The notes: generated from the sequence alone by a model not told the origin. Counted from the first letter of the stretch, positions 5,317 through 29,790 are shown. The stretch: DNA of 32,000 bases from Polynucleobacter sp. MWH-Svant-W18 (GCF_018687495.1 NZ_CP061293.1:1721242-1753241), one strand, 5' to 3'. Numbers and translations are program-made.

Positions 5317-5377
5317 ATAACCCCCATTAATTATTATTTTTGCTTTGTTAAGACTATGCTCATAAGCACCAAGCCAT

Positions 5378-5831: not shown

Positions 5832-5835
5832 TTAG

Positions 5836-6114
5836 TTAGTTACAGCAACAACTTGTGCCACTCTTACAAGAACCACTCTTAGCCTTTGCTTGAGGCGATG
5901 CATCAGAACTGATCTTTGCGGGATAACCATCCTCTTCTAATGCCGCAATAATCTCTTTTACCTGTTGCGAGATATTGCCTTCAACCTTGACTGCGCCAGA
6001 GGCAAGATCTACCTCAACCTTTTGCACCCCAGCAATTGAATTAATGGCTTTTTCAACATGCTTTACGCAAGCACCACAAGTCATTCCACTTACCGTTAAA
6101 TTGATTGTTTCCAT
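5836..6114 (-). CDS. heavy-metal-associated (HMA) metallochaperone with C-terminal Cys cluster
   Basis: 92 aa. Has the GMTCGAC metal-binding motif in a ferredoxin-like HMA fold. The tail SGSCKSGTSCCCN carries five Cys. No signal peptide. Confidence 0.85.
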   Translation of the reverse strand: METINLTVSGMTCGACVKHVEKAINSIAGVQKVEVDLASGAVKVEGNISQQVKEIIAALEEDGYPAKISSDASPQAKAKSGSCKSGTSCCCN

Positions 6115-6164
6115 ACCAACCTCCTTTGTATGAATTGATTATTCGCTCAATCATCCAAAGAGCG

Positions 6165-6180
6165 TATGATTTAAATCATA
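6165..6180. promoter_or_regulatory. Crp/Fnr-like dyad TATGAT-TTAA-ATCATA
   Basis: 16-bp perfect palindrome with a TGAT-N4-ATCA core in the divergent region. Centred about 58 nt upstream of the HMA start, and its last base is the A of the regulator's ATG at 6180. Confidence 0.5.
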
Positions 6181-6785
6181 TGGACATCTATATTCCTGAA
6201 CTGCTAAAGGAGCTCCTGCCCAAAGGACTATTGGGGCAATGTCATGCCCATCACTTTGAAAAAGGTGATTACCTTTTCCATCAGGGCAAAAAACCTGAAT
6301 ACATGTTCTTTATTGTTTCGGGCGAAGCTGTTCTTACGAGAATCAGTAGCCATGGAGAGCCCACTACATTACAAAGATGTAAGGGTGGCTTTGTCAGTGA
6401 AGCCAGTTTGTTAGTAGATGCTTATCACTGTGATGCTATTGCGACTCACAATGGACAAGCGATCACGCTACCCATTAAATCTTTAAGAGAAGCACTCGCC
6501 GATAGCAAGTTCTCAATGAAATGGGTGCAGTTGCTAAGCAAAGAGATCATGCGCCTTCGAACACAATCTGAACGATTGGGACTCAAAGACATTCGCAGTA
6601 AATTAATTCATCTGATTGAGACCGAAGGCAAACAAGGCGTATTGACACTTCAGTCTGATTTCAAGTCCATGGCTTCAGAGATTGGGGTGACGCATGAGGC
6701 CTTATATAGGGCTATCGCCACATTAGAAAAAGAAGGTCTACTAGAAAAACATCCTGATTCCTTGGAATTGCTGAAGAAAAAATGA
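6180..6785 (+). CDS. Crp/Fnr-family transcriptional regulator
   Basis: Has a cNMP-binding-like beta-roll (FFIVSGEAVL) and a C-terminal HTH (MASEIGVTHEALYRAIATLEKEGL). The track start at 6105 is a TTG that overlaps the HMA gene, so the ATG at 6180 (MDIYIPELL) is preferred. Confidence 0.8.
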   Translation: MDIYIPELLKELLPKGLLGQCHAHHFEKGDYLFHQGKKPEYMFFIVSGEAVLTRISSHGEPTTLQRCKGGFVSEASLLVDAYHCDAIATHNGQAITLPIKSLREALADSKFSMKWVQLLSKEIMRLRTQSERLGLKDIRSKLIHLIETEGKQGVLTLQSDFKSMASEIGVTHEALYRAIATLEKEGLLEKHPDSLELLKKK

Positions 6786-7550: not shown

Positions 7551-7606
7551 TGGCTTTATTAAGTGGGCATTTAGACTCGAATGTTAAGAGCCTATTTTAC
7601 AGTTTT

Positions 7607-7667
7607 GTCGTTTTAAACGACATTGACTGACACAGGGATGTTTAATTGACATGTCCTTTTAAGGGAC
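7607..7667. repeat. 61-bp composite three-hairpin element, copy 2
   Basis: GTCGTTTTAAACGAC..GACTGACACAGGGATGT..GTCCTTTTAAGGGAC. Same length and order as 19289..19349 and occupies the same position relative to the tRNA 3' end. Confidence 0.8.
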
Positions 7668-7719
7668 GGTTCTAGATGGGGATATCCAAGACTAATGGTG
7701 GCTAACCCTGCCAAGCCAT

Positions 7720-7748
7720 AAAAGAAAATAGCCCAACAAGTGGGCTAT
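7720..7748 (-). terminator. terminator following the displaced tRNA-Phe 3' half
   Basis: ATAGCCCA-ACAAG-TGGGCTAT. On the minus strand it is followed by TTTCTTTT. Confidence 0.6.
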
Positions 7749-7757
7749 TGTGATTCT

Positions 7758-7802
7758 TGGTGGCCCGGGGCGGAATCGAACCACCGACACAAGGATTTTC
7801 AA
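7758..7802 (-). repeat. displaced 3' half of tRNA-Phe (att-type direct repeat)
   Basis: 45/45 identity to 19440..19484, i.e. CCA end through T-arm to the anticodon loop TTGAAAA. Beyond 7802 the similarity collapses and no acceptor 5' strand can pair. Confidence 0.85.
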
Positions 7803-8023
7803 CTCTGTCCCCCAGACTAAACTCCCGCTAGATCTCAAAAGGTTCACCCCACCATAGGCTAACTTTGTGCACAAAACTTTCTTGGGTGTTTGTATGGGGT
7901 TGATTTGGTTGAGTTATTTTGACCCACGCAAGGAGTGAGAGAAAGTTTGGTGGCGTAGTGGGGATTTGACTGACGCAAGGATGTGATGTCCTTGTCGTGA
8001 TCGGTGTACCCCGTGCATGAACC

Positions 8024-9693: not shown

Positions 9694-10362
9694 CTTTTTC
9701 TCCTATAAGTTAATGGGCACACTTAATTTATGGTCAGAGTTTTTGGATGGACAACCTCTTTTTGCCAAAAGCCACAAAGATCTAATGATTTGACCCAGAT
9801 CTGCTCTCCTTTTATTAGGTTTCACTAAATAACTTTGACGACAAGGCGGAAGAACGCTTTGTATGCCATCACTTATTACTACTGAAACAAGGGCAGTGAC
9901 ACCCAGTCGTTATGTCACCCTAAAGCTGGACTTAGAGTCACAGTCATGGAAATTCTGGGCAGTAGCAGAGACTTGCAGTCACTAACCAATTGGATGCCGT
10001 TGGATGTTGCTACCCAACTGACTCAAGAATGTAATTCAGCACAAAGATCGTAGAACGTAGCTCTATGGATCACGAGAAAGCCCTGCTTACACAGCAACTT
10101 TCAAACAAGACAAAGGTAGCCACTTATTGCTTTTGTCATTGTTGCGTTTTAAGCCGCACGTAAAAGGAGATAGCGAAACCGCCCTTACCAATTTGGTTGT
10201 GCTTATAGTGGTGTAGTAAAGAACTCAGCGAAAGTCCTTTTCTATTACTGAGCCTGTTGCCTAAGGCTCAGTGTAGATTGAATCTAGCGAAAATCAATCA
10301 AAAGAAAGAAATTGTGATGAGCGACAAGCGAAATCACTGGCGAATGTAGTTCGCCATAATAT

Positions 10363-11154: not shown

Positions 11155-11330
11155 CATCAAATATCGTGGCGAAAATGCCACGATAAATATAAGAGAACAG
11201 TACTACTCTTATATTTTTGCCTAACTCATTGATAAAAAAGCGTTTCTTTTTCAGCCATTTTCGGTTGCCCAAACCGAATCTAAGAAAACATACTGTAACT
11301 CTGTATTTAATACATTTCAGGGAGATACAT

Positions 11331-11897
11331 ATGTCACAAGCTAGAGTTTTAAACCCACAAGAACTACGCAGAGTTTTAGATCATGTTGCTACACGCAGGC
11401 ATTCAGCACGTAATCGCGCTATGTTGCTACTTACGCACTACGCGGGCATGCGAGTAGCTGAAGTAGCCGCGCTACGCATAAACGACGTTTTAAGCGGCGA
11501 CAGCACTATTAAGGGCGAAGTACGCTTGATGCCCGATCAAACCAAGGGCAAACACGCTCGTACTGTTTACTTAAATGAACGGATGCAAAAGGAATTGGCT
11601 CAGTACATCAAGGCTATCAAAATCAAAGATGTCACTAAGCCCTTGTTTTACACGCAGAAGCAAGCAGGGTTCTCGGCCAACTCTCTTACCCAGTACTTCT
11701 TTTATCTATACCGCTCTGTTGGTTTAGAAGGTGCCAGTAGCCATAGTGGTAGACGCACATTCTTAACTGGACTTGCCAATAAAGGCACAGCGATTCATAT
11801 ATTGAAGAGCTTAGCTGGGCACCGCAACATCAGCACCACCGCCACCTATCTCTACAGCAGTCCCGATCAACTTAAGGCCGCTGTTGAGTTAATCTAA
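11331..11897 (+). CDS. short tyrosine recombinase (catalytic domain only)
   Basis: The ATG at 11331 is preceded by GGGAGA. 188 aa with YAGMRVAEVAAL (Arg), HSGRRTF (H-x-x-R), GHRNISTTATY (His..Tyr). The upstream part of the track ORF (from 11217) has no support. Confidence 0.8.
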   Translation: MSQARVLNPQELRRVLDHVATRRHSARNRAMLLLTHYAGMRVAEVAALRINDVLSGDSTIKGEVRLMPDQTKGKHARTVYLNERMQKELAQYIKAIKIKDVTKPLFYTQKQAGFSANSLTQYFFYLYRSVGLEGASSHSGRRTFLTGLANKGTAIHILKSLAGHRNISTTATYLYSSPDQLKAAVELI

Positions 11898-15271: not shown

Positions 15272-16546
15272 TCAAGCCAACCTATCCGCCGCCATTGTTG
15301 CCGTCAACTTGCTGTAATGACGATCAATCATGGCGGCACTATTTCCCATCTGCTTAGACAGCGTATGAATATCTGTCTTGTTCTCTAGTAGCTCCAAAGT
15401 AGCGTAGGTATGACGCAAGGAATACAAAGTACGCATCTGTCCATCGTGACTTAATCCCAAACCACTATCTCGCATTAGTCGCTTAAATGCGCCATCAATC
15501 CGCATGGGCTGATGACCATTGGCAAATACAAAGATCCGCTCTGGGCAACGAGTCTCAAACAGCCGATCAAAGGGAATATCCCACACGGCACGTTGCCTAC
15601 TGTGTAATCGTTTGAGCACATCTACTGCCTTATGTTTGGCAATTAGCCAACGCCCACCCGTCTTGCCATCCACCCAAATACGTAGGTATTTCTTATCTCC
15701 CTGCGTGTGCCACTCAATATTGTTCCAGCATATATTCAGTGCCTCAGTGCCATGCCTCATGCCTGTGTATAAAAGCATTTCAATATAGTCGCGCAGTAGA
15801 GGGCGAGTCTCATGCTCAATCTCTAATCTGCCTTGCTTGATCCATGGCTCCATAAACTCTAATAAGCGATCAATCTCTTCACGAGTGAATGCTGGACGGG
15901 TTTTACCTTTCTGCCCTCTGGCTGTGAGTTTGGGAATAGCTACTCGTTCGCTGATCCAGCCTTTGCTAATAGCTACCAGTTGTAACTTAGTCCAAGCACT
16001 GGCAAAGTTCATTAAGGTGCTGGCTCTAGGCACCTTGTTCATCTGCCTATTTCGCCAAACCTCAAACTCATGCACGTCTGTGTAGGTTATCTCTTCTAGT
16101 CTTTTGTCCTGAAAGTAAGGTAGAAAGTATTTCTCAATACAGGTGATGTAGCTACCGTACACACTCTTGCCTATACCCACATCCAAGTCTTGCCGCATTG
16201 AGTAGAGAGTGGCGTGTGCAATTTCTGCAAACGTGGGTGACTTTTGTGCAAGCCCTAGTCTTTGGCGAAATCTGGTTTCATCGTAAAGATCGCAAGCCAT
16301 TCGTACAGCGTGCTCAATGCTGGCTTGACGGGTAGTCTGACGATGCCACGAGCCATCTTGTAATCTAAAGCGGCAATGCCAAAGTGGACTTCCGGGTCTG
16401 CGATGAATAACGACTTCGCCATCACGCAGATAGAGCTCGGTGGGCTCAGCATATTTGAGCTGGCTTAGGGCTGTGGGTTGGGATTCCGGCCGGGGTGAGG
16501 AGATTACTTCTAGGTGACTTTCAGGTACTTTGATTACCTTAGTCAC
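15272..16546 (-). CDS. int: tyrosine integrase (phage/P4-type)
   Basis: 424 aa. Contains LLYTGMRHGTEAL (Arg), LRHTYATLEL (H-x-x-R) and NSAAMIDRHYSK (His..Tyr). Adjacent to the tRNA-derived repeat at 16870. Confidence 0.9.
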   Translation of the reverse strand: MTKVIKVPESHLEVISSPRPESQPTALSQLKYAEPTELYLRDGEVVIHRRPGSPLWHCRFRLQDGSWHRQTTRQASIEHAVRMACDLYDETRFRQRLGLAQKSPTFAEIAHATLYSMRQDLDVGIGKSVYGSYITCIEKYFLPYFQDKRLEEITYTDVHEFEVWRNRQMNKVPRASTLMNFASAWTKLQLVAISKGWISERVAIPKLTARGQKGKTRPAFTREEIDRLLEFMEPWIKQGRLEIEHETRPLLRDYIEMLLYTGMRHGTEALNICWNNIEWHTQGDKKYLRIWVDGKTGGRWLIAKHKAVDVLKRLHSRQRAVWDIPFDRLFETRCPERIFVFANGHQPMRIDGAFKRLMRDSGLGLSHDGQMRTLYSLRHTYATLELLENKTDIHTLSKQMGNSAAMIDRHYSKLTATMAADRLA

Positions 16547-16840: not shown

Positions 16841-16865
16841 AGAGAGCTAAAAGCTCTCTTTTTGA
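16841..16865. terminator. hairpin plus T-run abutting the att repeat
   Basis: AGAGAGC-TAAAA-GCTCTCT followed by TTTTTG. Same position relative to the tRNA 3' end as the hairpins at 7728, 17901 and 19407. Confidence 0.5.
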
Positions 16866-16869
16866 ATCT

Positions 16870-16911
16870 TGGTGGCCCGGGGCGGAATCGACCAGGGCCT
16901 AGGATGACTGA
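16870..16911 (-). repeat. 42-bp direct repeat R1 containing a collapsed tRNA-Phe
   Basis: The first 22 nt are identical to the tRNA-Phe 3' end (TGGTGGCCCGGGGCGGAATCGA). They are followed by CCAGGGCC, which resembles the tRNA 5' terminus CCAGGCC. 40/42 identity to 17931..17972. Confidence 0.85.
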
Positions 16912-17894: not shown

Positions 17895-17927
17895 ATGAAA
17901 AAACCACCCGAGGGTGGTTTTGGTGTT
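17895..17927 (-). terminator. bidirectional terminator after arsC
   Basis: AAACCACC-CGAG-GGTGGTTT flanked by an A-run and a T-run. Confidence 0.7.
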
Positions 17928-17930
17928 TCT

Positions 17931-17972
17931 TGGTGGCCCGGGGCGGAATCGACCAGGGCCGAGGATGTCTGA
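17931..17972 (-). repeat. 42-bp direct repeat R2 containing a collapsed tRNA-Phe
   Basis: See 16870..16911. The two mismatches are at repeat positions 31 and 38. Confidence 0.85.
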
Positions 17973-19439: not shown

Positions 19440-19515
19440 TGGTGGCCCGGGGCGGAATCGAACCACCGACACAAGGATTTTCAATCCTCTGCTCTACCGA
19501 CTGAGCTACCAGGCC
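19440..19515 (-). tRNA. tRNA-Phe (GAA)
   Basis: The reverse complement GGCCTGGTAGCTCAGTCGGTAGAGCAGAGGATTGAAAATCCTTGTGTCGGTGGTTCGATTCCGCCCCGGGCCACCA folds into a cloverleaf by hand. Features: 7-bp acceptor stem with one G-U, anticodon loop TTGAAAA, encoded CCA. Confidence 0.95.
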
Positions 19516-19644
19516 AAGACTTGGAATTATAGCGGAACTGTTTTTAAGCTGTCTAAATGTGTCCACTGTGGTTAACTCTTCTAAAAAGCTATTGATCCTG
19601 CGGCTTGGTGGGGATTTTCTATCCTGTCTGCGGTAAGCGTTGCG

Positions 19645-19689
19645 TAGAGGATAACTAATCCTCTATCTATCGAGGCTTGATATGAGCGG
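19645..19689. repeat. junction repeat A (hairpin plus ATCCTCTATCTATCGAGGCTTGA)
   Basis: TAGAGGAT-AACTA-ATCCTCTA hairpin. 19658..19680 matches 22606..22628 at 22/23 positions and resembles the tRNA-Phe segment ATCCTCTGCTCTACCGA. Confidence 0.7.
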
Positions 19690-19720: not shown

Positions 19721-21766
19721 TTAAAACTTAAACCTTAATTCAGCGCCACCACCGTATTCATGACCATATGTGTTGTATGAGGCAACAACACCTATGCGTG
19801 CAGAAATTTCTTTCGTAATTCCGCCTTGAATACCCAAGCCCACCATATTAGAAACTGGTCCCATGTTAGCGCCGACTTGAGCAAATGATTGGGTATTGCC
19901 GTTAAAGGAAGTGGTTGCTGTCACTGTATGAGCTGAAGCGCTGTTGGCATACCAGTCATAACCAAACTTATAAAACCCAATTAAAGACAGTGGGTCATTT
20001 GTACCCTTTAGTAGCGGGTAAATAAAATCTGCTCCAGCAAATGTCACTGCAGTGTAAGCGGTTGCTGAATTAATACCGTAGTTAAAGGTATTACCACCCT
20101 GCTCACTTGCGCCACCCATCCAGAGCTGCGAGTAAGAAGCTCCTAGAAATGGTGACACAGTAAAGTTTTGAGCTTGATATGCTTTAGCCAGCTTTGCAGC
20201 TGCATATACTCCATTAGATTTAAATGAGCTAGTTGCATTACCGCCGACTAAATCTCCCACATTGGGAGCGCTTCTATTGGCATTGGTGCTGCCATACATA
20301 TATCCCAAAGCTCCAGAGAGCTTTACTTGCTCAGCAAAATTGAGCGCACCATATAAGCCAGCATAAAAGTTCGTTGTGTTGAAATTTTGAGTAACCTGCT
20401 GACTCTCAGTCATCGATGTACTACCGGTGCCTGCAAAAACGCCGAATCCGCCATCCTTAGAGCGCTTAATGTCACCACCAAAAATAACGTCATACAAGTT
20501 ATATCCAAAGCCAGCAAGGTTGTTGTAATTATTTACTGTTCCCTTAACTGCCGCAGCATCAGCCCAGATATAGCGACCTTCGTCATCTTGATAAACCTTG
20601 GTGGATGGTGATGCACTCATTGGTGCATGGATGCGGTCCATTACAGTATTGGTAATGTGCGCCATTTGCTCAAGTCCAATAGTCATATTAGATGAGTAAC
20701 CTTCAGCGTGAACGTTTTGCAACTGATTTACTTGAGCTTGCGTTAAACCACTGACCGCTGAACCTATTGTTACCCCATTGGATTGCACAGTGGCATTGGC
20801 TGCTTGGCCAGCAAATACATACGCTAAATTTGTACCGGCACTACTTCCAGCAACTACTGGCGATGCGGCGACTGTCTTAGTTGTTTGTAAATCCCAAGTA
20901 GTTCCTGATGAATTATTTAAAACCCATGAAGTAGTAACCAGGCCGCCGACAAAAGCGCCAGTAGTGGTGGCTGTATTGATATTTAAAGCAGAAAATCCAT
21001 TCAAAACTGAACCATAGGTAGTTGTATTGAGTGGAATAGTTGATTGTGAAGCGATCCCAAAATCCATTGTCCCAGAACCCGATTGAAGACGTATCTGACC
21101 ATAATCAGTTGGACTATTAATGATTACATTGTATGTACCCGGAAGTTTCCCGTTATAAAAAAGGGAGCCATTTGAATTGTTAATTACCCCAATTGTTCCT
21201 CCATTCTGGATTCCTTCTACTCCACCACTGATTCTCCCTGTATTGGTGATAGTGTTGATTGTCCCTGCGTTGGCGATACCATAAGTGGAACCAGATCCAA
21301 TTACTCCCGAATTGATGATCGATCCAATATAACCCCCCGCTTGGTTTTGAATAGCATTGCCCCCAGTTGGCGTTATGGATCCAGCATTAGTTAGGGTCGT
21401 AATTGAGCCAGATGGCCCGACGGTAACACCACCGGAACCAGTAAAGCTGCCAATCGTCCCGTTATTCACAAAATTCCCTACTGGAGTACCAATAGCAACT
21501 GAAGCAGTAGAGCCAGAATTAATTGTTCCATTATTAATAAATGATGAAAATGTTCCGCCAGTCGTAACCCTCACGGAGTAGATCCCCGTTGAACTAATGG
21601 CAAAATCATTAACAAGCACACCTGCATTTGAATTGATTACCAAGTTTGTGCAGTTAGCAGTTGGGCTTGTATTGTCAGTACAAGATACCGCTAAGCTGAT
21701 ATTGGCGTAGCCAACTCCAAAGGCAATCAATGCTGCTTGTATTAGGGACAGTAATTTTATTTTCAT
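19721..21766 (-). CDS. autotransporter (type Va secretion) protein
   Basis: 681 aa with a signal peptide. The Gly/Asn/Thr-rich passenger has repeated G-x-I-x-N-x-G-T-I units. The C-terminal beta-barrel ends in ELRFKF. Confidence 0.85.
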   Translation of the reverse strand: MKIKLLSLIQAALIAFGVGYANISLAVSCTDNTSPTANCTNLVINSNAGVLVNDFAISSTGIYSVRVTTGGTFSSFINNGTINSGSTASVAIGTPVGNFVNNGTIGSFTGSGGVTVGPSGSITTLTNAGSITPTGGNAIQNQAGGYIGSIINSGVIGSGSTYGIANAGTINTITNTGRISGGVEGIQNGGTIGVINNSNGSLFYNGKLPGTYNVIINSPTDYGQIRLQSGSGTMDFGIASQSTIPLNTTTYGSVLNGFSALNINTATTTGAFVGGLVTTSWVLNNSSGTTWDLQTTKTVAASPVVAGSSAGTNLAYVFAGQAANATVQSNGVTIGSAVSGLTQAQVNQLQNVHAEGYSSNMTIGLEQMAHITNTVMDRIHAPMSASPSTKVYQDDEGRYIWADAAAVKGTVNNYNNLAGFGYNLYDVIFGGDIKRSKDGGFGVFAGTGSTSMTESQQVTQNFNTTNFYAGLYGALNFAEQVKLSGALGYMYGSTNANRSAPNVGDLVGGNATSSFKSNGVYAAAKLAKAYQAQNFTVSPFLGASYSQLWMGGASEQGGNTFNYGINSATAYTAVTFAGADFIYPLLKGTNDPLSLIGFYKFGYDWYANSASAHTVTATTSFNGNTQSFAQVGANMGPVSNMVGLGIQGGITKEISARIGVVASYNTYGHEYGGGAELRFKF

Positions 21767-21771
21767 TATAT

Positions 21772-22146
21772 TTACTCGTTTTTATAAACATTAACTATGC
21801 CACCACAAGCGGCAAAACATTGCCTGTAGGATTCATCACAATTCCAATAGTTTGGATTGACTGAACAATACTGTGGATTAGGATTACATTTTTTTACGTC
21901 ATCATGACTTTGCGCACGGTTTACGCAAGCCTGATAGCTGAAGCTATTTTGCTGATGGCAGGTATTTACATTTGCTTGCGCTTGGGCTTGAGCACCGTTA
22001 TAGCAAACATTCTTAGTATTCATGCACTGGACCGCACAAGTCTTTCCAGACTCACTGTGCGGAGCAATATATTCGTAGCGATAGGTAGTACAGGAACCAA
22101 GCAATAAGACTGCTAAACAGGATGCTGTAAGTAGCTTAATATTCAT
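21772..22146 (-). CDS. Cys-rich lipoprotein
   Basis: 124 aa with the lipobox LLGSC and 11 further Cys. 5-nt gap to the autotransporter gene. Confidence 0.6.
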   Translation of the reverse strand: MNIKLLTASCLAVLLLGSCTTYRYEYIAPHSESGKTCAVQCMNTKNVCYNGAQAQAQANVNTCHQQNSFSYQACVNRAQSHDDVKKCNPNPQYCSVNPNYWNCDESYRQCFAACGGIVNVYKNE

Positions 22147-22182
22147 GCAGATAGATCATTATTAGAATTGAAGGTATTTTAT

Positions 22183-22515
22183 ATGTTTAGAGTCCTATTC
22201 GCCCTACATTTGTGCATATCCTTACCTGTTTTAGCGCTAGAAAAGGCTCAGGGTGTTGTTTACTGTCATGGCAAAACTGTTCTAGAGTACCGACCAGTCA
22301 ACCCTGAGAAGGATGGAACTGCGTCTGATGTTGATTTGACCGTTAATGGCAAGACCTTTCGCTTCATGACAGCCTACTCTTGGTTCGGGGCTAATCAAGC
22401 AGCTCCCAAGGGATTCAAGTTCGCAATTCTTGGTGAAAAGCAATTTGATCCGTTGCTAGTATTTGATGGCTACCTTGTAGATGCCAATAAGAATAAATAC
22501 ATTAAGTGCAATTAA
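22183..22515 (+). CDS. small secreted protein
   Basis: The ATG at 22183 is preceded by GAAGG. Signal peptide MFRVLFALHLCISLPVLA. The track start at 22168 is a TTG. Confidence 0.55.
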   Translation: MFRVLFALHLCISLPVLALEKAQGVVYCHGKTVLEYRPVNPEKDGTASDVDLTVNGKTFRFMTAYSWFGANQAAPKGFKFAILGEKQFDPLLVFDGYLVDANKNKYIKCN

Positions 22516-22548: not shown

Positions 22549-22639
22549 AGCGTCCCATAACTAGACGCCGAATAAATATGTTCCATTTAGAACAGGTAAT
22601 TAACTATCCTCTATCTAACGAGGCTTGACAGGATGAGGG
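22549..22639. repeat. junction repeat B (left boundary of the nuclease/protease cassette)
   Basis: 22549..22597 (AGCGTCCCATAACTAGACGCC...TTCCATTTAGAACA) is homologous to 29535..29580. 22606..22639 (ATCCTCTATCTAACGAGGCTTGACAGGATGAGGG) matches repeat A. Confidence 0.7.
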
Positions 22640-22648
22640 TAGCCTGAA

Positions 22649-22837
22649 TTATTTAATTGCCATATCAATAAGTTGCTTGGTATCGCTATCTATTGCTCGC
22701 GCCTTTTTAATCCAGCTTTGGCTACTCAGACAAGCATCAAGCATTCGCTTTACGGCAGCAGGATGGCTAGCACAATCTGCAAATCTAAGCCAAACTCCAC
22801 TATCAGCTTGATACTCAATTATTGCTGTTGTACTCAT
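22649..22837 (-). CDS. small hypothetical protein (last gene of cassette)
   Basis: 62-aa ORF, same strand as the cluster and 40 nt downstream of it. No motif. Confidence 0.4.
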   Translation of the reverse strand: MSTTAIIEYQADSGVWLRFADCASHPAAVKRMLDACLSSQSWIKKARAIDSDTKQLIDMAIK

Positions 22838-22877
22838 ATGAATCCTTCTTCAGCAGTGGAACATTAATGCTCAGAGC

Positions 22878-23312
22878 CTATAGAGGATATCTCTCGCCTA
22901 TTTCTGCTTGCAAAATTCCAGCTTCAGTTAATCTGAATTTATTTTTTAGCCCAATTAAATAGTCCGAATTAAATTCCTTCATTTCTCTCGGTATTGTCTT
23001 GGGATCTTTCGCAATCTTGATTAAGGCATAGGCTGGAGTGCCAGATTTAATCAAATCAATATGTCTGATTCTTTCATTTCTAGCGGTTGACGCTTCACTC
23101 ACTCCACTCCAAAGTTTTTCATCCCATAAAACATCCACCCAAGTTGGGGACTTTGGGTCCTTAGGGTCATCCCGCTTGATCTCATCTTGCCAAATGGACA
23201 AATAAACAGCGGATCCATCTGACTTGACTGCACCCCAGCTCCAACGATTATTGACCATAGGAGCTTCTAATTTATTTTCAAAAAACTCGGTGAGACTCAG
23301 TATTGATGCCAT
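22878..23312 (-). CDS. hypothetical protein
   Basis: 144-aa ORF with beta-rich patterning (NNRWSWGAV, VYLSIWQDE, AYALIKIAKD). Family not recognised. Confidence 0.5.
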   Translation of the reverse strand: MASILSLTEFFENKLEAPMVNNRWSWGAVKSDGSAVYLSIWQDEIKRDDPKDPKSPTWVDVLWDEKLWSGVSEASTARNERIRHIDLIKSGTPAYALIKIAKDPKTIPREMKEFNSDYLIGLKNKFRLTEAGILQAEIGERYPL

Positions 23313-23343
23313 GCTTCATATCCAATCTTAGAAATTTAACAAG

Positions 23344-23763
23344 TTAAGATTTATATAGGGCAAATACATCAAACGCCACCTTATATTTGTCTAAATCTTT
23401 TTTGCCTTCATTCTGAAATTGAGCAATCTCTTTTCCAACAAGCTCCATCAATTGTTGAATCTCTGAGCTCGTAATTTCATCTGGCGGCATATATCCCTCA
23501 GGATTCATTACATAAAAATTTTCTCTGTAAAAATCATCCTTTTCATGGCGAATTGAGCATCTAATTAAAGTGGGTACATTTGGGTCTGGCTCATAATTTG
23601 CAAATCCATCGATCATCGCTTGAGATAAGTCTAGAATGATTTTCTCATTAATATTAGAGCCTAAATTAAATTCGCACTCCAGAGCAATTTCGTTATTGTC
23701 AACCGCCTTACTCATTCTTTTAGACAACTTGGTTACTAATTCTGCGTCGCTATAGCCACTCAT
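23344..23763 (-). CDS. hypothetical protein
   Basis: 139-aa ORF. No recognised motif. Confidence 0.5.
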   Translation of the reverse strand: MSGYSDAELVTKLSKRMSKAVDNNEIALECEFNLGSNINEKIILDLSQAMIDGFANYEPDPNVPTLIRCSIRHEKDDFYRENFYVMNPEGYMPPDEITSSEIQQLMELVGKEIAQFQNEGKKDLDKYKVAFDVFALYKS

Positions 23764-23859
23764 AAATATCCCTTCTTACTTTTTTAGTTAATTTTTTCTA
23801 CTTAACGCTATGAATGTGTCATATGCCGATGGAACTCAAAACAGGGAATTTTATTTAAA

Positions 23860-24795
23860 TTAATCAAAGAAAATATCGTCTTTATCCTGCCGCATTCCAG
23901 CCATAAAAGCGCCAGCAAATTTCTCTAAGGTAGTAACAAATGCTTTTGTATCAATACCAAACTGGGTAGATAAAAAGTATCTGCCGTAAAGGTAGAAACC
24001 ATCAGATTCTGATCCAGCTGCAAAAAACTGAGGGCGAGCAATTGTAGAATTCAGTAAATTGATAAAGCTATACATATCTACCTCGCTCACGCCTGGCTTA
24101 ACGCCAGCATAAGTATGAAATTGAAGTAGGTTTGTATCGGCATCAAATGTCATGAAAGTACCAAATTCAATATGATCATTTGAGACATATAGATCTTGAT
24201 CATCATCTAATGATGGCGCAAAACCAGCATCATCTAATACCTTTTTCAAAGCCTCAATACAAATATCGCCTGAATTAATAAAATTTTCATTTTTCATATT
24301 TTCTTTTCCTTTTTCTAGAATTTTTATAGCGCCCTCATAATCTATTTCACCATTTGCAATGCCAACTATTGATGGAGCCAGAAACTCAATGTATTCACTC
24401 ATTTCATCCAACATCTTATTGAGCTCGCTACCAATATCCTCAACACCCTTCTCCAAAGCCTCAATAGATCGTGCATGAATATAATTTAAAACTCCTGATT
24501 TAGAAAAATATAAATTTCCTTCATCTTTCCTAAAGTGGAGACAAAGATCGATAATTTCTTGTGTTGCCTTTTCAGGAATACTAAATCTAACTGTGCCAAC
24601 CAATGTCAACATTCCCTCCTCATCCCCATCTGCCTCATCTGCGATTAACAAGCAGTCAAGACCATACTCGCCTCCTGCAGCATATCCAAAGGATAGACTG
24701 GAGCCTTTTCCATCCTCCCTTTCCTCTGGCCTCTCCTCCCATCCAATAGCTTCAAGCCACTTAATTATTTCTTTTTTTATTACTTTCCTAGCCAT
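23860..24795 (-). CDS. tandem YbjN-like (T3SS-chaperone-like fold) protein
   Basis: The ATG at 24795 is preceded by GGGGAG (the track start at 24810 lacks an SD). There are two repeats of the YbjN pattern. The C-terminal half (ALKKVLDDAGF..DLYVSNDHIEFGTFMTFDADTNLLQFHTYAGV..MYSFINLLNS..YLYGRYFLSTQFGID) is the clearer match. Confidence 0.45.
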   Translation of the reverse strand: MARKVIKKEIIKWLEAIGWEERPEEREDGKGSSLSFGYAAGGEYGLDCLLIADEADGDEEGMLTLVGTVRFSIPEKATQEIIDLCLHFRKDEGNLYFSKSGVLNYIHARSIEALEKGVEDIGSELNKMLDEMSEYIEFLAPSIVGIANGEIDYEGAIKILEKGKENMKNENFINSGDICIEALKKVLDDAGFAPSLDDDQDLYVSNDHIEFGTFMTFDADTNLLQFHTYAGVKPGVSEVDMYSFINLLNSTIARPQFFAAGSESDGFYLYGRYFLSTQFGIDTKAFVTTLEKFAGAFMAGMRQDKDDIFFD

Positions 24796-24822
24796 ATACT
24801 CCCCAATCATAGAAAACTATTA

Positions 24823-25815
24823 TTAATAAATTCTCTTCTCTTTCGGTAGCCATTTAACAGATTCATCAAGCCAATCTGATACAGCACTTGACCTAAGAAT
24901 GGACTCTCTAACCCAATCGCGCATTAGATAATTACCTGTATCTGCATATTTTTTTAATACATTAGGGCATATTGAATCAAGAGAAATTAAATAATGTAAT
25001 TTTGATTTCTCTAGCCACTCAGAGAGATTTTTTTGATCTTCAACGCTAGATATTTTTAATTTAACTTGAACACTAATATCTTCACCCGTAGGTTTTGCCA
25101 TTCCATCCATATTGAAATCAGGTGGAACTCTTGCAAAGAAATCAATGTCCTTAAAAAAGCCGCCCTTATATGCTGGCACAAAGCATTTTTTATCTTCAAA
25201 TAATTTTGCAAGTAAAGTCTCAAACTCAACGCTTGAGAGGCAATCAAGCGGATCAACTCTAAAACCATCTTGCCATTTCTTGGTCAAAAATTGAATTGCA
25301 GCAATGTTTCCAGAATACTTTTCATTCTTTCCAATCTCCGCAAATGTACGTCGGGAAAAAGCTGGGTTTGCCTTCATACTCGCAAGGATATATGGGACCT
25401 TTGAAACCGGCATTGGCTCAGAAAGCAATTCAATATCAAAGTATTTGGGCCAATCTATCCGATCGACCATGGCGCCCTTGTGTTTTTTAAATTTTATTTT
25501 TTCACATTCCTTTGGCTTCCCTATCATCCTATAAACCCAAACCATTCCAGAATCTATGGTGACTATATGAACTTCATATTTTTTTTCCTCTAAGTCTTCA
25601 TTGATTTTAAGAAATCTTAAAACTTCATTTTTTTGTTGGGTCTTTAATTTTTCTGAAAAATTGCCACTTAGAGTTTGCTCAACACTATCGCCTCCAAAAA
25701 AAATTGGAGCTCTTTTGCTAGCCAACCAAAATTCTGCAGGGCTCTGTCCATTAATGTTATAGCCTTCATAGGGATGCTTGATATTTAAATTAAAAAATTT
25801 TATTTTCTTATTCAT
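24823..25815 (-). CDS. unknown N-terminal domain fused to an Mrr-like PD-(D/E)XK nuclease domain
   Basis: 330 aa. SVEFETLLAKLFEDKK..YKGGFFKDIDFFAR..ISVQVKLK is the classic Mrr_cat pattern (FE..l, D-x-D, Q-x-K). The start ATG shares one nt with the stop of the upstream gene (TAATG). Confidence 0.6.
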   Translation of the reverse strand: MNKKIKFFNLNIKHPYEGYNINGQSPAEFWLASKRAPIFFGGDSVEQTLSGNFSEKLKTQQKNEVLRFLKINEDLEEKKYEVHIVTIDSGMVWVYRMIGKPKECEKIKFKKHKGAMVDRIDWPKYFDIELLSEPMPVSKVPYILASMKANPAFSRRTFAEIGKNEKYSGNIAAIQFLTKKWQDGFRVDPLDCLSSVEFETLLAKLFEDKKCFVPAYKGGFFKDIDFFARVPPDFNMDGMAKPTGEDISVQVKLKISSVEDQKNLSEWLEKSKLHYLISLDSICPNVLKKYADTGNYLMRDWVRESILRSSAVSDWLDESVKWLPKEKRIY

Positions 25816-27284
25816 TATTTTTTATAACTCTTAACTATCTCAACCATTGCCCACGTATCTTGTTCACAATATTTCAATAGATTTTTTCTAATTTCCTGCT
25901 TTTCTTTTTCTGCCATTTCATCAGAAACCAGCTGCTTGTAGGCTTCTTGTGCCATTCCACCGTTTTGCACCGCTAAATCTTTGTAACTTAGATTTGTGAC
26001 AGTTGGTAGCAATTTCTTAATCGACCAAGATCCTTTCATATCCGGGTGGTAGTAATGCTCCTTAGAGAGTTTGTATAAGTCAAAAAGTCTCTCTTCAATC
26101 TCTTTTAGCTTTGGCTGTAAATCAGGGAATAGTCGACCCATCTCCCTAATCCTCGATTGCTCAAAACTACTATAGACAAATATCGTCCCAGAACCACCCA
26201 ACACATTAATCAATGATTCGGTAAATTTACGTCTAGTATCCAGGCTCTCGGTATCTAAGAATTCTTTATGCTCAATGGCGGCTTCATCACTCTCAACGTG
26301 ACATGACCACTGAAAGGGTATTTGTGCAAAAGGACGAGTATTAGGAATTTTAGGAATGGCATAGCTTATGGTTTCAAAGTCTAAGTAAAAACGGGGATAA
26401 GCCAAGGCATCAATAGTTAACTTAGCGGCTGGATCTAGCTCTGCAATCCCTGACTTTGTAACTCTATGAACTCGAAGATGCCTTTCTTTTTCCAATAAAC
26501 CATCTGGCACTTCTCGCAGATCTTTATAGCCTGCAATTTTTAATTGCTCAACCACCTTAGCCGCATAAGGCAATATCTCAATGGGGTATTCCGTTTTTTC
26601 CTCAAAAGAAGAGCAATGCTCATAAAACGGACAGTCAAAAGGCTTGGTGCATTGATCTCCCGTTTTAATCTCTACTGGCTCATTTTTTAATGCTACTGTG
26701 CTCTTGGCATCGCTTAGCCACTCTGGGACCAGATCAACGAGGCTCTTTACTTCATCGGTGAGATTAACCTCTTCTAAAAATCCATCGTAATTATTGTCTC
26801 CGCCATACACAAATTGACTATTAATATGAGCTAGGTAGCTCATTACAGGCTTAGGCTGTGCATTTCTCAGTACCCACGTTTGAATTGCTACGTCCTGAAA
26901 TTGATAGGGCTTAACCGACGTAGAAGATTTAACTTCAACTAGCTTGTAATGTTTATCCTGCGGGAATAGCAAATCTACCCTAACCAGTAAGTCATCAGTA
27001 ATAAACGCGGGCTCAAATAGGGGAAGGTTTGGAGATTTACGTATCACCGCATCGGTTAAATCCAACGCCTCCTTAGAAGACTTGGTGCTAATAAACTCAC
27101 CCTCTGGTGATAGCTCTCTTGCTAAAGCGCCCACTTCATCCCCAGCAGCTATTCGCATCAAACTATCTGAATCCTGCTTAGCAAGCTCATGACGATACGT
27201 AGCTAACCAAAGCCTGCGTGGGCATTGAAGGTTTAAAAGAAGCTTTGACTTGGTTAGCAAAATAGCGTTGTTTAATTTATGCAC
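25815..27284 (-). CDS. DUF2779-type dual nuclease: Cas4-like PD-(D/E)XK with Fe-S cysteines, plus DEDD exonuclease
   Basis: 489 aa. The N-terminus has QCPRRLWL, RVDLLF..LVEVKSS (D..E-x-K) and CTKPFDCPFYEHC. The C-terminus has FYLDFETIS, VYSSFEQSRI and YCEQDTWAMVEIV (exo I-III). The GTG start overlaps the upstream gene by 8 nt. Confidence 0.7.
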   Translation of the reverse strand: MHKLNNAILLTKSKLLLNLQCPRRLWLATYRHELAKQDSDSLMRIAAGDEVGALARELSPEGEFISTKSSKEALDLTDAVIRKSPNLPLFEPAFITDDLLVRVDLLFPQDKHYKLVEVKSSTSVKPYQFQDVAIQTWVLRNAQPKPVMSYLAHINSQFVYGGDNNYDGFLEEVNLTDEVKSLVDLVPEWLSDAKSTVALKNEPVEIKTGDQCTKPFDCPFYEHCSSFEEKTEYPIEILPYAAKVVEQLKIAGYKDLREVPDGLLEKERHLRVHRVTKSGIAELDPAAKLTIDALAYPRFYLDFETISYAIPKIPNTRPFAQIPFQWSCHVESDEAAIEHKEFLDTESLDTRRKFTESLINVLGGSGTIFVYSSFEQSRIREMGRLFPDLQPKLKEIEERLFDLYKLSKEHYYHPDMKGSWSIKKLLPTVTNLSYKDLAVQNGGMAQEAYKQLVSDEMAEKEKQEIRKNLLKYCEQDTWAMVEIVKSYKK

Positions 27285-27882
27285 TCATCATTCTGACTAT
27301 TTCACTAATACCCTTTTGTAGTTGTGCGTCAGACATGGCGACAAAGCTTGCAATTGCCTCAGACTTTCCAACGGATATACCTTTAAGGCACAAACTTGAT
27401 TTATAGCGAACTGTTCCACTTCCGTCTTCATCGACATTCATCTCGAAGTTACCAAGAATCATGTCATTTAGATTTACCTCTCCAATGTAAGTGGCCATGT
27501 TTTCTGTCTCATCATCACTTAAGCCAGATAGCCCTGCTGGATAACAATAAAAGACTATCAAAGGATGGTTTGGATAGTATTGCTCGGTTACCTCAATAAA
27601 AACTGGAGCCTCCCTGGAAACGACCTCGGCAACATCATCATCCAAATCATTAAGGTTTAAGGTATAAGCAAGCGTTGCATTTTCTGAGTCTTCAGAAATA
27701 TCAATCGTATCCTCATTACCGAGAATCCCTTTCCACCAGCCCATAAGAGAGTAGGTTCCAACTTTAACTTCACGAGTTTTTGTCTCAATTTCACCAGTCT
27801 CTTCATTTTCAATTGTTTCTGATTGAATAAACTTAATACCGTGAAATTCATCCTCTTTTGGTAAGTCTTTTAATGAAGTCAT
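27277..27882 (-). CDS. acidic YbjN-like protein
   Basis: 201 aa. The acidic N-terminal half is followed by PVFIEVTEQYYPNHPLIVFYCYP..MATYIGEVNLNDMILGNFEMNVDEDGSGTVRYKSSL, which matches the YbjN-family pattern by eye. Confidence 0.45.
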   Translation of the reverse strand: MTSLKDLPKEDEFHGIKFIQSETIENEETGEIETKTREVKVGTYSLMGWWKGILGNEDTIDISEDSENATLAYTLNLNDLDDDVAEVVSREAPVFIEVTEQYYPNHPLIVFYCYPAGLSGLSDDETENMATYIGEVNLNDMILGNFEMNVDEDGSGTVRYKSSLCLKGISVGKSEAIASFVAMSDAQLQKGISEIVRMMSA

Positions 27883-27965
27883 GTGGTTCCTTTTTTGTTA
27901 ATTAAATAGGCTTTTTATCATTCCAAGATTGATAATAATTAAACTTTAAATTAATAATTTACTTT

Positions 27966-29330
27966 TTAATGGGTCAATTGGGCTGATTGCGCAATCTTTT
28001 TGGAATATGTACTTTCCTTGTTGGAGAAGCCCATTTCCCTGAAGTCTTGATGTGTTAGTAACTTCTTATTTAATAGCTCGTTAACTATGAGCTCCAAGCT
28101 ATCGCGATGCTCTGTAAGCAAAAACCTTACAGCCTCGTATTGCTTTTCCAGCAAAGTGCGAGCTTGATTTGAATAATAATCATTAGTCTTGCTCGCTTCT
28201 CGGTCTGGGATGAAAAGATTGGAGCCTAAAAGCTCTTTCTCCCCGTGCACACAATCAAATCCGCCCTTAGTTACTAAATCAAATGCAATTCGTGATGCAC
28301 GCCTTAGATCGTCTTGCGCCAAGTGAACATCGACTTCAAGTTGTCCACAAATTAATTCTTCAGCTGCTCTGCCAGCTATTGCGATCCGAATTTTGGTGCA
28401 AGCCGCCTTAAATGAAAGAGGTCCTTCAGTCTCGTAGGCACGCTGATAGTCCTCTACAACTATGCCAACATACCCTTTACCAGGGAGAATAGTTGCAATC
28501 TCAGGAATATTTTTATTTCCCGATTCTAAAATCGTGACGAGTGCATGTCCCGCTTCGTGAACGGCAATCTGTAAATCGTGTTTATTTCTAGTGGACTCAT
28601 ATCCATCCCCAGTTCCACTTGTAACGAGGCGGTAAATATCTTGCCACTGTATTTGCCTGTTTTGAAAATGGGCAATACGCTTTAAGGCTGATGCCAGCAT
28701 ACCAATCCTTCTGAAAACTGGAAAATCAGAACATAGAATGCACCCCAGCCTATTCATTGAATTCAATATCGAGATATCAAACTTTTCAGTACCAACCAAG
28801 TCTATTAGGTCTTGCCCGATGAATTCTGGCGTTGGCTCCATCCACTGCAGATGGCGATCGAAGATCCCTTGATACCTAAAGCAAGTCGCAATATCTGCAT
28901 AACTGTCAGAAACTAAAACACAAACAATGGGTTTACCAACCAAATTTTTAAGAAATTCAGTGGTTTTTTTTTGCTTTTGGAGTGATTCGTCATCATTACT
29001 AGAAGATTGAATCCAATCACCAGATTCTATGAATACTATCTTTGGATAAGAAAAGTTTTTACCAACCAGATCTTCGATATCAAATATCTGCGTGGAATTT
29101 AAATATTGAAACCCAATATTTAATTGCTCACTTATCAATCTGATGGATTGTTCACAATCATCAGCGTCTTCTCCCTCTACGACTAAGCCGTGTCCAAGAA
29201 GCTCCCATCTGTCTTCAGGAAAAGATGCTCCAATAGTTTGCTTGAGCTCTTGTGTCCATTTCCACAAATATGTTTGCCTGTCTTTAGTCTTATCTAATAC
29301 TAGTTTCGTTGCAGGATAAATGGACGACAT
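27966..29330 (-). CDS. soluble FtsH-like protein: degenerate AAA+ module plus M41 zinc metalloprotease domain
   Basis: 454 aa with no TM segment. IAVHEAGHALV (HEXXH) and IAGRAAEELICG, LAQDDLRRASRIAFDLVTKGGF align with the FtsH protease domain. At the Walker A position it has GLVVEGEDADDCEQS instead of GPPGTGKT, and at Walker B it has IVFIESGD instead of hhhhDE. Confidence 0.75.
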   Translation of the reverse strand: MSSIYPATKLVLDKTKDRQTYLWKWTQELKQTIGASFPEDRWELLGHGLVVEGEDADDCEQSIRLISEQLNIGFQYLNSTQIFDIEDLVGKNFSYPKIVFIESGDWIQSSSNDDESLQKQKKTTEFLKNLVGKPIVCVLVSDSYADIATCFRYQGIFDRHLQWMEPTPEFIGQDLIDLVGTEKFDISILNSMNRLGCILCSDFPVFRRIGMLASALKRIAHFQNRQIQWQDIYRLVTSGTGDGYESTRNKHDLQIAVHEAGHALVTILESGNKNIPEIATILPGKGYVGIVVEDYQRAYETEGPLSFKAACTKIRIAIAGRAAEELICGQLEVDVHLAQDDLRRASRIAFDLVTKGGFDCVHGEKELLGSNLFIPDREASKTNDYYSNQARTLLEKQYEAVRFLLTEHRDSLELIVNELLNKKLLTHQDFREMGFSNKESTYSKKIAQSAQLTH

Positions 29331-29534
29331 TTTTTTCCTTTTCTTAGCGCAGTTTTTTTCAAGAATGGAAAACTGCCTCTTAATGCTTAACCTCTATTTT
29401 AAGAATTTAGCGAATTAAAGTAAAACTGATTTTTATTTAACAAATAAAAGAAGCGAGAAAAATATATGGAATTAAAGTCAAGTATTTTTTATATCTATGG
29501 CTTTAAATTTTGTGGGGGCTTGTTTCTTAATTCA

Positions 29535-29580
29535 AGCGTCTCGTAACTAGACGCTTAACTTTTTTATTCTAACTAGAACA
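29535..29580. repeat. right-hand copy of the cassette boundary repeat
   Basis: AGCGTCTCGTAACTAGACGCTT...TTCTAACTAGAACA is homologous to 22549..22597. Includes the hairpin AAGCGTCT-N7-AGACGCTT followed by a T-run. Confidence 0.65.
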
Positions 29581-29727: not shown

Positions 29728-29790
29728 TTTTCAATCCTCTGCTCTACCGACTGAGCTACCAGGCCAAGACTTGGGATTATAAATGAAACT
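29728..29790 (-). repeat. orphan 5' half of tRNA-Phe plus about 25 nt of upstream flank
   Basis: 29728..29765 is identical to 19478..19515 (anticodon loop to the 5' end). The next roughly 25 nt (AAGACTTGGGATTATAA..GAAACTG) resemble 19516..19540. Confidence 0.85.

Follow-up and report, generated by a model that had tools for sequence, protein, structure and literature searches.

The closest concept to the locus described here is found in the predicted ARG-centric conflict systems, in which peptide-binding 'TY-chaperones' are combined with WYL proteins and variable restriction-endonuclease effectors (Iyer, Burroughs, Anantharaman, Aravind 2022; PMC9503650, in the part devoted to these systems). 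The locus in question is a cassette of eight genes, named g1 to g8, at positions 22649-29330 of a 32,000-nt stretch of Polynucleobacter sp. MWH-Svant-W18 DNA, referred to below as the window. An earlier note made from this sequence had described the cassette as a dead-ATPase FtsH-like protease, two nucleases and three YbjN-like domains, and had proposed it as a candidate defence or conflict system. I arrive at about even odds (a probability of roughly 0.5) that the region is the cargo of an integrase-less tRNA-Phe island, and that this cargo is a modular, undescribed defence or conflict cassette with g1-g3 as its core, working as in the mechanism proposed below. Judged from sequence and with cross-genome support, an undescribed, defence-type and nuclease-based island system under protease control is a credible description.

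As presented in that part of the paper, the ARG-centric systems share with the cassette and its relatives the fold of YbjN and type III secretion system (T3SS) chaperones, including tandem forms, as well as WYL proteins, fast-evolving effectors, and an organisation into a core with variable modules (PMC9503650). They differ in that their core is an ADP-ribosylglycohydrolase/phosphatase, which the window lacks, while the core here consists of an M41 protease and a DUF2779 protein, both of which are absent from section 3.8 of PMC9503650. In one related locus (L006, 2980-7777; L-numbers denote related loci from other lineages), the M41 cluster is immediately preceded by an MmeI-type restriction-modification gene, a 297-amino-acid (aa) ADP-ribosylglycohydrolase and an unknown gene of 254 aa, and this ADP-ribosylglycohydrolase gene recalls the TY-chaperone systems covered in that part of PMC9503650.

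A dedicated zinc metalloprotease encoded beside the system that it gates is also a feature of CapP/CapH in the cyclic oligonucleotide-based antiphage signalling system (CBASS), of ImmA/ImmR and of IrrE/DdrO. These proteases belong to the M78/ImmA-IrrE family and cleave helix-turn-helix (HTH) repressors. Relatives of the cassette likewise carry a CapW/BrxR-type WYL-WCX regulator beside the protease; g1, however, is an M41 protease, and chaperone-fold proteins stand in place of the transcription factor. Pfam detected no HTH protein in the cassette, and no recognisable transcription factor was present in the window. The defence operon ietAS, composed of the AAA ATPase IetA and the subtilase IetS, similarly joins an AAA-clade module to a protease. 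In contrast, g1 unites a dead ATPase and a protease in one polypeptide, is a metalloprotease and not a serine protease, and had no PADLOC match, while ietAS has no DUF2779 or YbjN partner.

The eight proteins were compared with PADLOC-DB v2.0.0 (2023) at E ≤ 0.1. Only Cas4 models were matched, and only by g3, while the other seven proteins gave no match. A full-text literature search returned no paper that ties M41/FtsH-like proteases, DUF2779 or their combination to defence, and a preprint on nuclease-NTPase defence makes no mention of Cas4, DEDD, AAA, WYL or protease. The statement in the earlier note that the combination corresponds to no named system was borne out by both searches. No experiment is known to have connected either the M41 family or YbjN proteins with immunity.

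Gene order and junctions

ORF calling on the window recovered all eight open reading frames (ORFs) of the earlier note, arranged in tandem on the minus strand from 22649 to 29330. The overlap of g2 and g3 is 8 nt (GTGCATAA), with the junction reading ...ATGATGAGTGCATAA, and the start of g3 is fixed at its GTG because an in-frame TGA TGA sits just upstream. The stop codon of g3 and the start codon of g4 have one nt in common (TAATG). Both junctions had been reported in the earlier note and were found as described, and through these overlaps g2, g3 and g4 are translationally coupled. Apart from the overlaps, the intergenic gaps measure 31-96 nt, which is compatible with a single operon.

For g5, a Shine-Dalgarno sequence (GGGGAG) closely precedes the ATG at 24795, and this start, the one used in the earlier note, was therefore preferred over a longer ORF. 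The longer version, starting at 24810, is missing from the public proteins, where g1, g2, g4, g6, g7 and g8 have identical entries, annotated as 'hypothetical protein', in the range QWD77974-QWD77981. The G+C content of the cassette (0.383) is below that of the pstS-like gene (0.430) and of ycaO (0.457), as had been claimed.

An FtsH-derived protease without Walker motifs

The product of g1 (27966-29330) matched Peptidase_M41 (PF01434) in Pfam at 6.7e-20 (72.2 bits, threshold 29.9) over residues 249-432 only, with no Pfam match to AAA or FtsH_ext. Against TIGR01241 it scored 60.9 bits where the cutoff is 600, and with its C-terminal M41 part only; it is therefore not an FtsH ortholog. In an alignment of 27 g1-family sequences, H258-E-A-G-H262, E324 and D341 were invariant, and a GKT/P-loop was not present. 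The family profile nonetheless aligned with solved FtsH structures over the AAA region (5.8e-5) as well as the M41 region (5.6e-29). Across the 27 sequences, the positions that correspond to Walker A (GEPGVGKT) and Walker B (IFIDEID) in FtsH (4ww0) were replaced and unconserved, while the second region of homology, LRxxGxFDR, was kept as R..G.FDR. The AAA-like module lies at the N-terminus, and no transmembrane segment was apparent, the maximum 19-residue Kyte-Doolittle hydropathy being 1.25.

With Walker A and B gone, HEAGH intact and no transmembrane segment, g1 is by its sequence a soluble FtsH paralog that is predicted to be ATPase-dead and protease-competent, much as the earlier note had read it. 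It resembles FtsH in aligning with both the AAA and M41 modules and in keeping HEXXH, the downstream acidic residues and R..G.FDR. It differs from FtsH in the missing transmembrane/periplasmic N-terminus, the lost Walker motifs and its length (~450 against ~640 aa), and also in being island-encoded, rare and at times fused to a YbjN domain. Plant FtsHi proteins are the reverse of g1, as there the protease site is the dead part.

The g1 family comprises ~33 clusters, of ~450 aa each, in billions of proteins. A PHROGs search with all eight proteins gave a single match, of a function-unknown PHROG to the M41 domain of g1. When genome contigs were searched with a profile that included HEAGH, almost all of the matches listed were canonical FtsH, and the only family member among them was in L013; for the pseudo-AAA domain alone, the alignment was too divergent to serve as a search pattern.

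An acidic chaperone-fold partner

The product of g2 (27277-27882) had no profile match in Pfam, PADLOC, NCBIfam or a sequence search of PDB. Its AlphaFold2 (AF2) model, with a predicted local distance difference test (pLDDT) score of 92.4, matched E. coli YbjN (6vu7), Deinococcus DR_1245 (4h5b), AmyR (5fr7), VecA (9ux0) and Spa15 (1ry9) in Foldseek with probabilities of 0.9-1.0 and template-modelling scores of about 0.6. On the strength of this model, g2 is assigned a predicted YbjN/T3SS-chaperone fold. It is acidic (isoelectric point, pI, 4.16), and its relatives are few: five close ones and 20 representatives at the 50% clustering level, in billions of proteins.

Two members of the protease family, P0023 and P0033 (P-numbers denote such members), have a fused architecture of N-terminal YbjN domain, pseudo-AAA domain and M41 domain. 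The hidden Markov model of the g2 family matched the N-terminal domain of these fusion proteases with 34 and 27 bits, so that g1 and g2 are linked by gene fusion in these relatives. The g2 gene is also the fastest-evolving one, with 27% identity to its ortholog in L010, in comparison to 45% for g1, 49% for g3 and 44% for g4.

A DUF2779 protein with two nuclease domains

The DUF2779 family has been described as a Cas4-like domain joined to a DEDD domain, with its function not known (PMC13621843, PMC3985635). The product of g3 (25815-27284) matched DUF2779 (PF11074) in Pfam at 1.1e-43 (148.9 bits, threshold 23.3), and its residues 19-226 matched the PADLOC Cas4 models at 9.3e-6. D104/E117/K119, the four Cys, and D302/E304/D402/Y472/D476 were invariant across six sequences. 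Read from these residues, g3 would combine a Cas4-like PD-(D/E)XK nuclease with a C-terminal DEDDy 3'-5' exonuclease, both with intact catalytic sets, and Pfam, PADLOC and the invariant residues agree with the corresponding call in the earlier note. As PADLOC found no cas gene among the eight proteins besides this domain, and the window contains no CRISPR array, the N-terminal half of g3 is a 'solo' Cas4-like domain.

The solo Cas4/DUF2779 protein MMSYN1_0389 of JCVI-syn3.0 and the UU173 family share this two-nuclease build, catalytic residues included. MMSYN1_0389 has two Cys where g3 has all four, and, unlike MMSYN1_0389 and UU173, g3 travels as cargo of an island and has partners of its own. 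PADLOC contains no model for DUF2779, and the long form of the protein (~655 aa) gave no PADLOC match. The idea that these long forms represent a fused g2 was rejected, since the added length consists of insertions.

Linkage of the protease to DUF2779 across lineages

In 9/11 independent lineages (the window lineage, L011, L010, L003, L012, L008/9, L006/7, L001 and L179), a DUF2779 gene lies no more than 10 kb from the protease, while in the two exceptions, L005 and L013, the contigs stop 1-1.3 kb past the protease. The two genes were found adjacent, divergent and convergent, with both short and long DUF2779 types, and their linkage persists down to 25% identity. DUF2779 proteins of the g3 type number a few hundred among 241 million metagenome records, corresponding to at least 498 loci. 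By the estimate made here, the linkage of protease and DUF2779 cannot be chance. Furthermore, g4 accompanies both of them in three gene orders (the window, L010 and L179), and the protease, DUF2779 and Mrr-like genes singled out in the earlier note thus do occur together outside this genome, in rearranged orders.

The neighbourhood of DUF2779 was then assessed in the best 80 of the at least 498 loci. A WYL-WCX regulator lies directly downstream of DUF2779 in 37/80 loci and a canonical AAA ATPase (~700 aa) lies nearby in 18/80, while the other neighbours are varied nucleases and helicases (PDDEXK_4/PDC-S26, NERD-UvrD, HD and Mrr_cat). The AAA partner matched the IetA models of PADLOC at 3e-38 across the AAA core. 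The strict order AAA-DUF2779-WYL was found in L107, L113 and L124, and the same three genes are loosely linked in L135, L137, L146, L152, L156 and L172; this arrangement may constitute a separate system, commoner and likewise undescribed.

The position of g1 suggests that it takes the place of the AAA-clade partner. When the protease profile was compared with the 694-aa AAA neighbour of DUF2779, hhalign returned nothing, and the argument from a shared position is therefore purely positional and one of common AAA-clade membership. The family centred on DUF2779 is the commoner one, and the protease is an accessory to it. In a further reading, which is less likely than not, the locus would be a branch of a much larger undescribed DUF2779, WYL and AAA-clade family (at least 498 loci in metagenomes), and within this branch an FtsH-derived protease that has abandoned ATP-driven unfolding would gate the Cas4-DEDD nuclease with the help of YbjN adaptors, as a new immunity mechanism.

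L001 (7455-11703) and L003 (1-2849) encode a protein of 1130-1169 aa with RNase_H_2 and superfamily 1 helicase parts, which in L001 follows the M41 and WYL genes. It looks like a COG2251/TM0106-type nuclease-helicase, its helicase part resembling Mokosh MkoA (3e-43), and the protease may also pair with this sister family of DUF2779.

The exchangeable g4 and g5

The gene g4 (24823-25815) encodes a basic protein with two domains and belongs to an orphan family of 87 clusters. The protein itself had no Pfam match, Mrr_cat (PF04471) included, while 25/44 family members showed sub-threshold Mrr_cat matches (best E 2.7e-3), and other families recurred in two members at most. D225...Q250-x-K252 is invariant in the family. 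Foldseek with the AF2 model (pLDDT 92.9) ranked the YTH domain of YTHDF2 at the top, as a weak match (E 7.8e-3, TMt 0.45), and also returned EcoT38I, Ecl18kI, Can2, VcaM4I and EcoRII-C, with restriction endonucleases at E 8e-3 to 4e-1. Matches to viral 'restriction endonuclease' and ASCH models were found too, and hhalign aligned the g4 family with an Mrr_cat neighbour at E 0.014; these fold matches are weak but consistent with one another. No hhalign match was obtained between the g4 family and the WYL protein that usually trails DUF2779, and the two are not homologous.

The C-terminal domain of g4 is thus a probable Mrr-like PD-(D/E)XK nuclease, and the modelled N-terminal beta-rich domain is tentatively a reader of the PUA/YTH/ASCH kind. 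The Mrr-like label of the earlier note is probably right: it is backed by the invariant D...QxK and the weak matches of the family, and not by an Mrr_cat match of g4 alone. With its D...QxK core of Mrr type and its separate N-terminal beta-rich domain, g4 is reminiscent of type IV (modification-dependent) enzymes such as Mrr and of reader fusions such as VcaM4I and MspJI; in contrast to g4, which always has one, the classic enzymes have no small hypervariable downstream partner.

In the window this partner is g5 (23860-24795), an acidic tandem YbjN-like protein (pI 4.41) in a variable slot. Residues 186-298 matched YbjN (PF10722) in Pfam at 4.6e-5 (24.1 bits, cutoff 22). The N-terminal half, like g2, stayed below the Pfam YbjN threshold, and a BLASTP comparison of the two halves of g5 gave nothing significant as evidence of an internal repeat. 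The earlier note had counted three YbjN-like domains: that of g2 is upheld by structure and that of the C-terminal half of g5 by Pfam, while the N-terminal half of g5 is only weakly YbjN-like. Sequence searches of g5, g6 and g7 against PDB gave no match.

Strains at least 87% identical to the window carry in slots 4 and 5 either g4 and g5, or g4 and an unrelated 182-aa gene, or a GIY-YIG nuclease: the GIY-YIG nuclease replaces both g4 and g5 in one near-identical relative, while the 182-aa gene replaces g5 in others. Relatives with 91-93% identity on either side of 23803-24821 gave no nucleotide match to this segment itself. The small genes that follow g4 elsewhere (168 and 182 aa) were unrelated by BLASTP to g5 or to each other. 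In L006, the genes after the M41 gene (182, 315, 138 and 166 aa) were considered as counterparts of g2, g5, g6 and g7 and rejected, as they match in length only and show no homology; the 182-aa protein of that locus resembles a lipoprotein.

The small genes g6 to g8

No relatives of known function were detectable for g6, g7 or g8. The small acidic g6 protein (23344-23763; pI 4.54) had no match in Pfam, PADLOC, NCBIfam, PHROGs or PDB; its gene stays with the cassette in close relatives, being found in L093-L095 and on the contig of P0001. The genes g7 (22878-23312; 144 aa) and g8 (22649-22837; 62 aa) aligned with L010 over window positions 22889-23312 and 22647-22840 (L010 2709-3132 and 2394-2587, respectively), and their products are 74% and 86% identical to the L010 orthologs. 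Beside g8 and an integrase, g7 is found in L010 and L104. While g8 is on the same strand as g7 in the window, it lies on the opposite strand, i.e. inverted relative to g7, in L010, L100 and L104. As both genes are far more conserved than g1-g4 and lie by the integrase in L010, they are probably island backbone or regulators; they could be a regulatory pair of the backbone.

Proposed mechanism and points against it

In the proposed mechanism, the dual nuclease g3 would be the hub, with g2 translationally coupled to it and g1 as a dedicated protease. Without ATP hydrolysis, g1 would be unable to unfold its substrates and would need them presented in an extended form, while chaperones of the YbjN/T3SS type would keep polypeptide segments extended. 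Taken together with the g1-g2 fusion, this would make g2 an adaptor, a substrate, or both. In the resting state g2 would bind and restrain g3, and once the system is triggered, for instance by an infecting phage, foreign DNA or damaged DNA, g1 would remove g2 or clip the complex and so free g3. As a second module, g4 and g5 might follow the same logic, possibly with a modification-reading nuclease and its own tandem-YbjN partner. In relatives, a BrxR/CapW-type WYL-WCX regulator would add transcriptional control, and the protease might act on that regulator instead. The acidic YbjN-like gene beside each nuclease fits YbjN proteins that restrain nucleases, and slot swapping, the fast evolution of g2 and neighbours of a defence type all argue for a role in conflict.

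A number of observations weigh against this reading. Neither the protease nor g4 is present in any of the 80 DUF2779 loci (0/80), and L104 and L105 retain a 355-aa protein, a g2-like gene and DUF2779 with no protease, L104 also having g7 and g8, which means that the role of the protease may be peripheral. In Dyella, g4 and a small gene lie beside an Lhr helicase, with no DUF2779 or M41 gene in the sequence available, and g4 may be an independent type IV-like enzyme whose reader-domain assignment is drawn from weak fold scores. The N-terminal half of g5 aligned with the g2 family in hhalign at a weak E of 0.0066, in a co-linear manner over 119 columns. A scan of the cassette for promoters and terminators was at background level, with no enrichment. 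Finally, what cleaves what, what acts as the trigger and which targets the nucleases attack are all steps that I infer. Two further points, on minimal genomes and on L179, bear on DNA repair and are taken up below. The domain calls of the earlier note proved strikingly accurate, and its interpretation finds support in part. With 0/80 loci containing the protease, slots 4 and 5 swapped and g7/g8 resembling backbone, the eight-gene system of the earlier note was given up in favour of what conservation and swapping point to: a core of g1-g3, a swappable g4 and g5, and a probable backbone of g7 and g8.

The absence of M41 and g4 from the 80 loci, the loci L104 and L105 and the Dyella pair would all suit a mosaic mini defence island, in which DUF2779 with g2, the protease, g4 with its variable partner, and the backbone g6-g8 are independent modules of a compacted cargo with no cross-talk. 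The clean exchange of slots 4 and 5 among strains and a rate of divergence of g7/g8 unlike that of g1-g4 point in the same direction. From the protease side, however, DUF2779 is near-obligate through all rearrangement and down to the lowest identity found, and g4 keeps company with both in its three gene orders. Moreover, the fusion ties the protease to the very chaperone that is coupled to g3, and overlaps of 8 nt and 1 nt join g2, g3 and g4. I consider independent modules rather unlikely on balance.

A second rival is an island-borne module for DNA damage and repair. Here, the processing of DNA ends would fall to DUF2779, a role like that of DR1245 to the YbjN-like proteins, the sensing of single-stranded DNA to WYL proteins and the turnover of repair factors to the protease. 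Some WYL proteins are known to regulate damage responses, as the title of a preprint on Moraxellaceae also suggests, and PafBC and DriD sense single-stranded DNA. DR_1245 is the second-best structural match of g2, and in Deinococcus DR1245 partners DdrB, a protein that binds single strands (according to a reference in PMC9503650). The C-terminal domain of DUF2779 resembles the repair exonuclease MrfB, and DUF2779 is quasi-essential in the minimal Mycoplasma JCVI-syn3.0 (PMC13621843), a point that counts against the conflict reading. In L179 (9226-15311, and also in L180), genes for a 668-aa DUF2779 protein, an ATP-dependent DNA ligase (475 aa) and a WGR protein (392 aa) are grouped in one direction, as in an operon. 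Two unknown genes (237 and 199 aa) are part of this group, and a g4 homolog and an M41-family protease lie at its flanks. The ligase and the WGR protein hint at DNA-end processing or repair. Repair genes would not, however, be expected to come with interchangeable nucleases (Mrr-like, GIY-YIG, PDDEXK_4/PDC-S26, NERD-UvrD) and a fast-evolving partner, the genes reside on islands that vary from strain to strain and carry integrases as well as restriction-modification and toxin-antitoxin genes, and the M41 (~33 clusters) and g2 (~20 clusters) families are extremely sparse; a repair module is quite improbable.

If the reading of a protease-gated g1-g3 core is true, it would present a new defence architecture: control would lie with an FtsH paralog that is reserved for the system, works without ATP and receives its substrates from adaptors with a chaperone fold. 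If the less likely reading as a branch of the larger DUF2779, WYL and AAA-clade family also holds, three orphan families would receive their first functions, namely YbjN, DUF2779 and the pseudo-AAA M41 paralogs. DUF2779, a widespread Cas4-DEDD nuclease, gains concrete candidate partners, and the commoner AAA-DUF2779-WYL arrangement, which is not in the 2023 PADLOC models, is exposed. The cassette further illustrates how tRNA-Phe cargo is exchanged and remodelled slot by slot in Polynucleobacter, a streamlined freshwater bacterium of 1.8 Mb.

Defence context of related loci

Related loci are small integrative elements: one, with an integrase and AlpA, is inserted in the trp operon, and another is P4-like and carries Prim-Pol and DUF3987. 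Further loci adjoin an MmeI-type restriction-modification gene, PIN/PhD and HipA toxin-antitoxin pairs, WYL-WCX regulators or a Mokosh-like helicase, and partner genes matched the PADLOC families WYL, IetA, MkoA, PDC-S26 and NERD-UvrD. The defence-island surroundings that the earlier note had suggested looking for were encountered in relatives, on integrase-bearing islands with WYL regulators, restriction-modification and toxin-antitoxin genes. Viral contigs seldom carry the families (2 loci and 1 locus).

Every nuclease gene of the cassette (g3, g4) adjoins one acidic YbjN-like gene. Together with the dedicated protease, this layout could also describe an addiction module that stabilises the island, composed of nuclease toxins, labile acidic YbjN-like antitoxins and a cis-encoded protease, and with no anti-phage role. 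An island with no integrase would gain from post-segregational stabilisation, and the family has the above toxin-antitoxin pairs beside it elsewhere. Yet toxin-antitoxin modules normally consist of two genes and use host proteases, and the WYL regulators and the diversity of partners are a better match for inducible defence. Such a module also overlaps with abortive-infection defence, from which it is inseparable by sequence, and I regard addiction with no anti-phage role as very unlikely.

The tRNA-Phe island and neighbouring features

The island that carries the cassette is bounded on its inner side by the intact tRNA-Phe(GAA) gene at 19440-19515 on the minus strand (ARAGORN and Rfam), an integration hotspot, and on its outer side by a duplicated 5' half of tRNA-Phe with 16 nt upstream, at 29728-29781, also on the minus strand. 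This 54-nt repeat is 98% identical between 19478-19531 and 29728-29781, and encloses an island of 10.25 kb. Two copies of a 46-nt imperfect direct repeat, 72% identical to each other, bracket the cassette downstream (22549-22594) and upstream (29535-29580), and a hairpin at 29534-29556, terminator-like on the plus strand, lies within the upstream copy. No integrase gene is present between 19.5 and 29.7 kb. The tRNA-Phe hotspot, the imperfect flanking repeats and the lack of an integrase of its own were all described correctly in the earlier note.

Just across tRNA-Phe there are two tyrosine recombinase genes, at 15272-16546 (minus strand) and 11217-11897 (plus strand), and three remnants of the tRNA-Phe 3' end or flank (7586-7807, 16861-16911 and 17923-17972). 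With recombinases and 3'-end remnants on this far side, tRNA-Phe is therefore a true hotspot with island arrays on both sides. The downstream side resembles a tandem array of islands that arose by classical 3'-end integration, while the island with the cassette is unusual in lying upstream of tRNA-Phe with the 5' half duplicated.

In the metagenomic loci L093-L095 (91-93% identical), the cassette is likewise enclosed by the tRNA-Phe fragment and the complete tRNA, with outer neighbours other than those of the window. L093 contains two divergent genes of 147 and 148 aa (5277-6305) between the M41 gene and the repeat/tRNA fragment, which are homologous to the 151- and 148-aa genes behind the protease in L011. 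Window positions 29509-29528 mark the point at which these genes are gone, in a deletion of ~1 kb that left the hairpin as an orphan.

Rfam returned no element inside the cassette, and no tandem repeats were found in the window. Between the cassette and tRNA-Phe, a separate autotransporter module occupies 19721-22515, with a 681-aa autotransporter (Autotransporter beta-domain, 3.8e-23), a Cys-rich putative lipoprotein of 124 aa and a secreted-looking ORF of 115 aa. This module is bracketed by a 28-nt direct repeat (19658-19685 and 22606-22633, 89%), and in L093 an Exo_endo_phos gene is found in its place. Further away, the Rfam Polynucleobacter-1 small RNA was identified at 9891-10025 on the plus strand (94.7 bits), inside the integrase-bearing island region, and a direct duplication of ~480 nt with 74% identity links positions 76-551 and 3419-3894.

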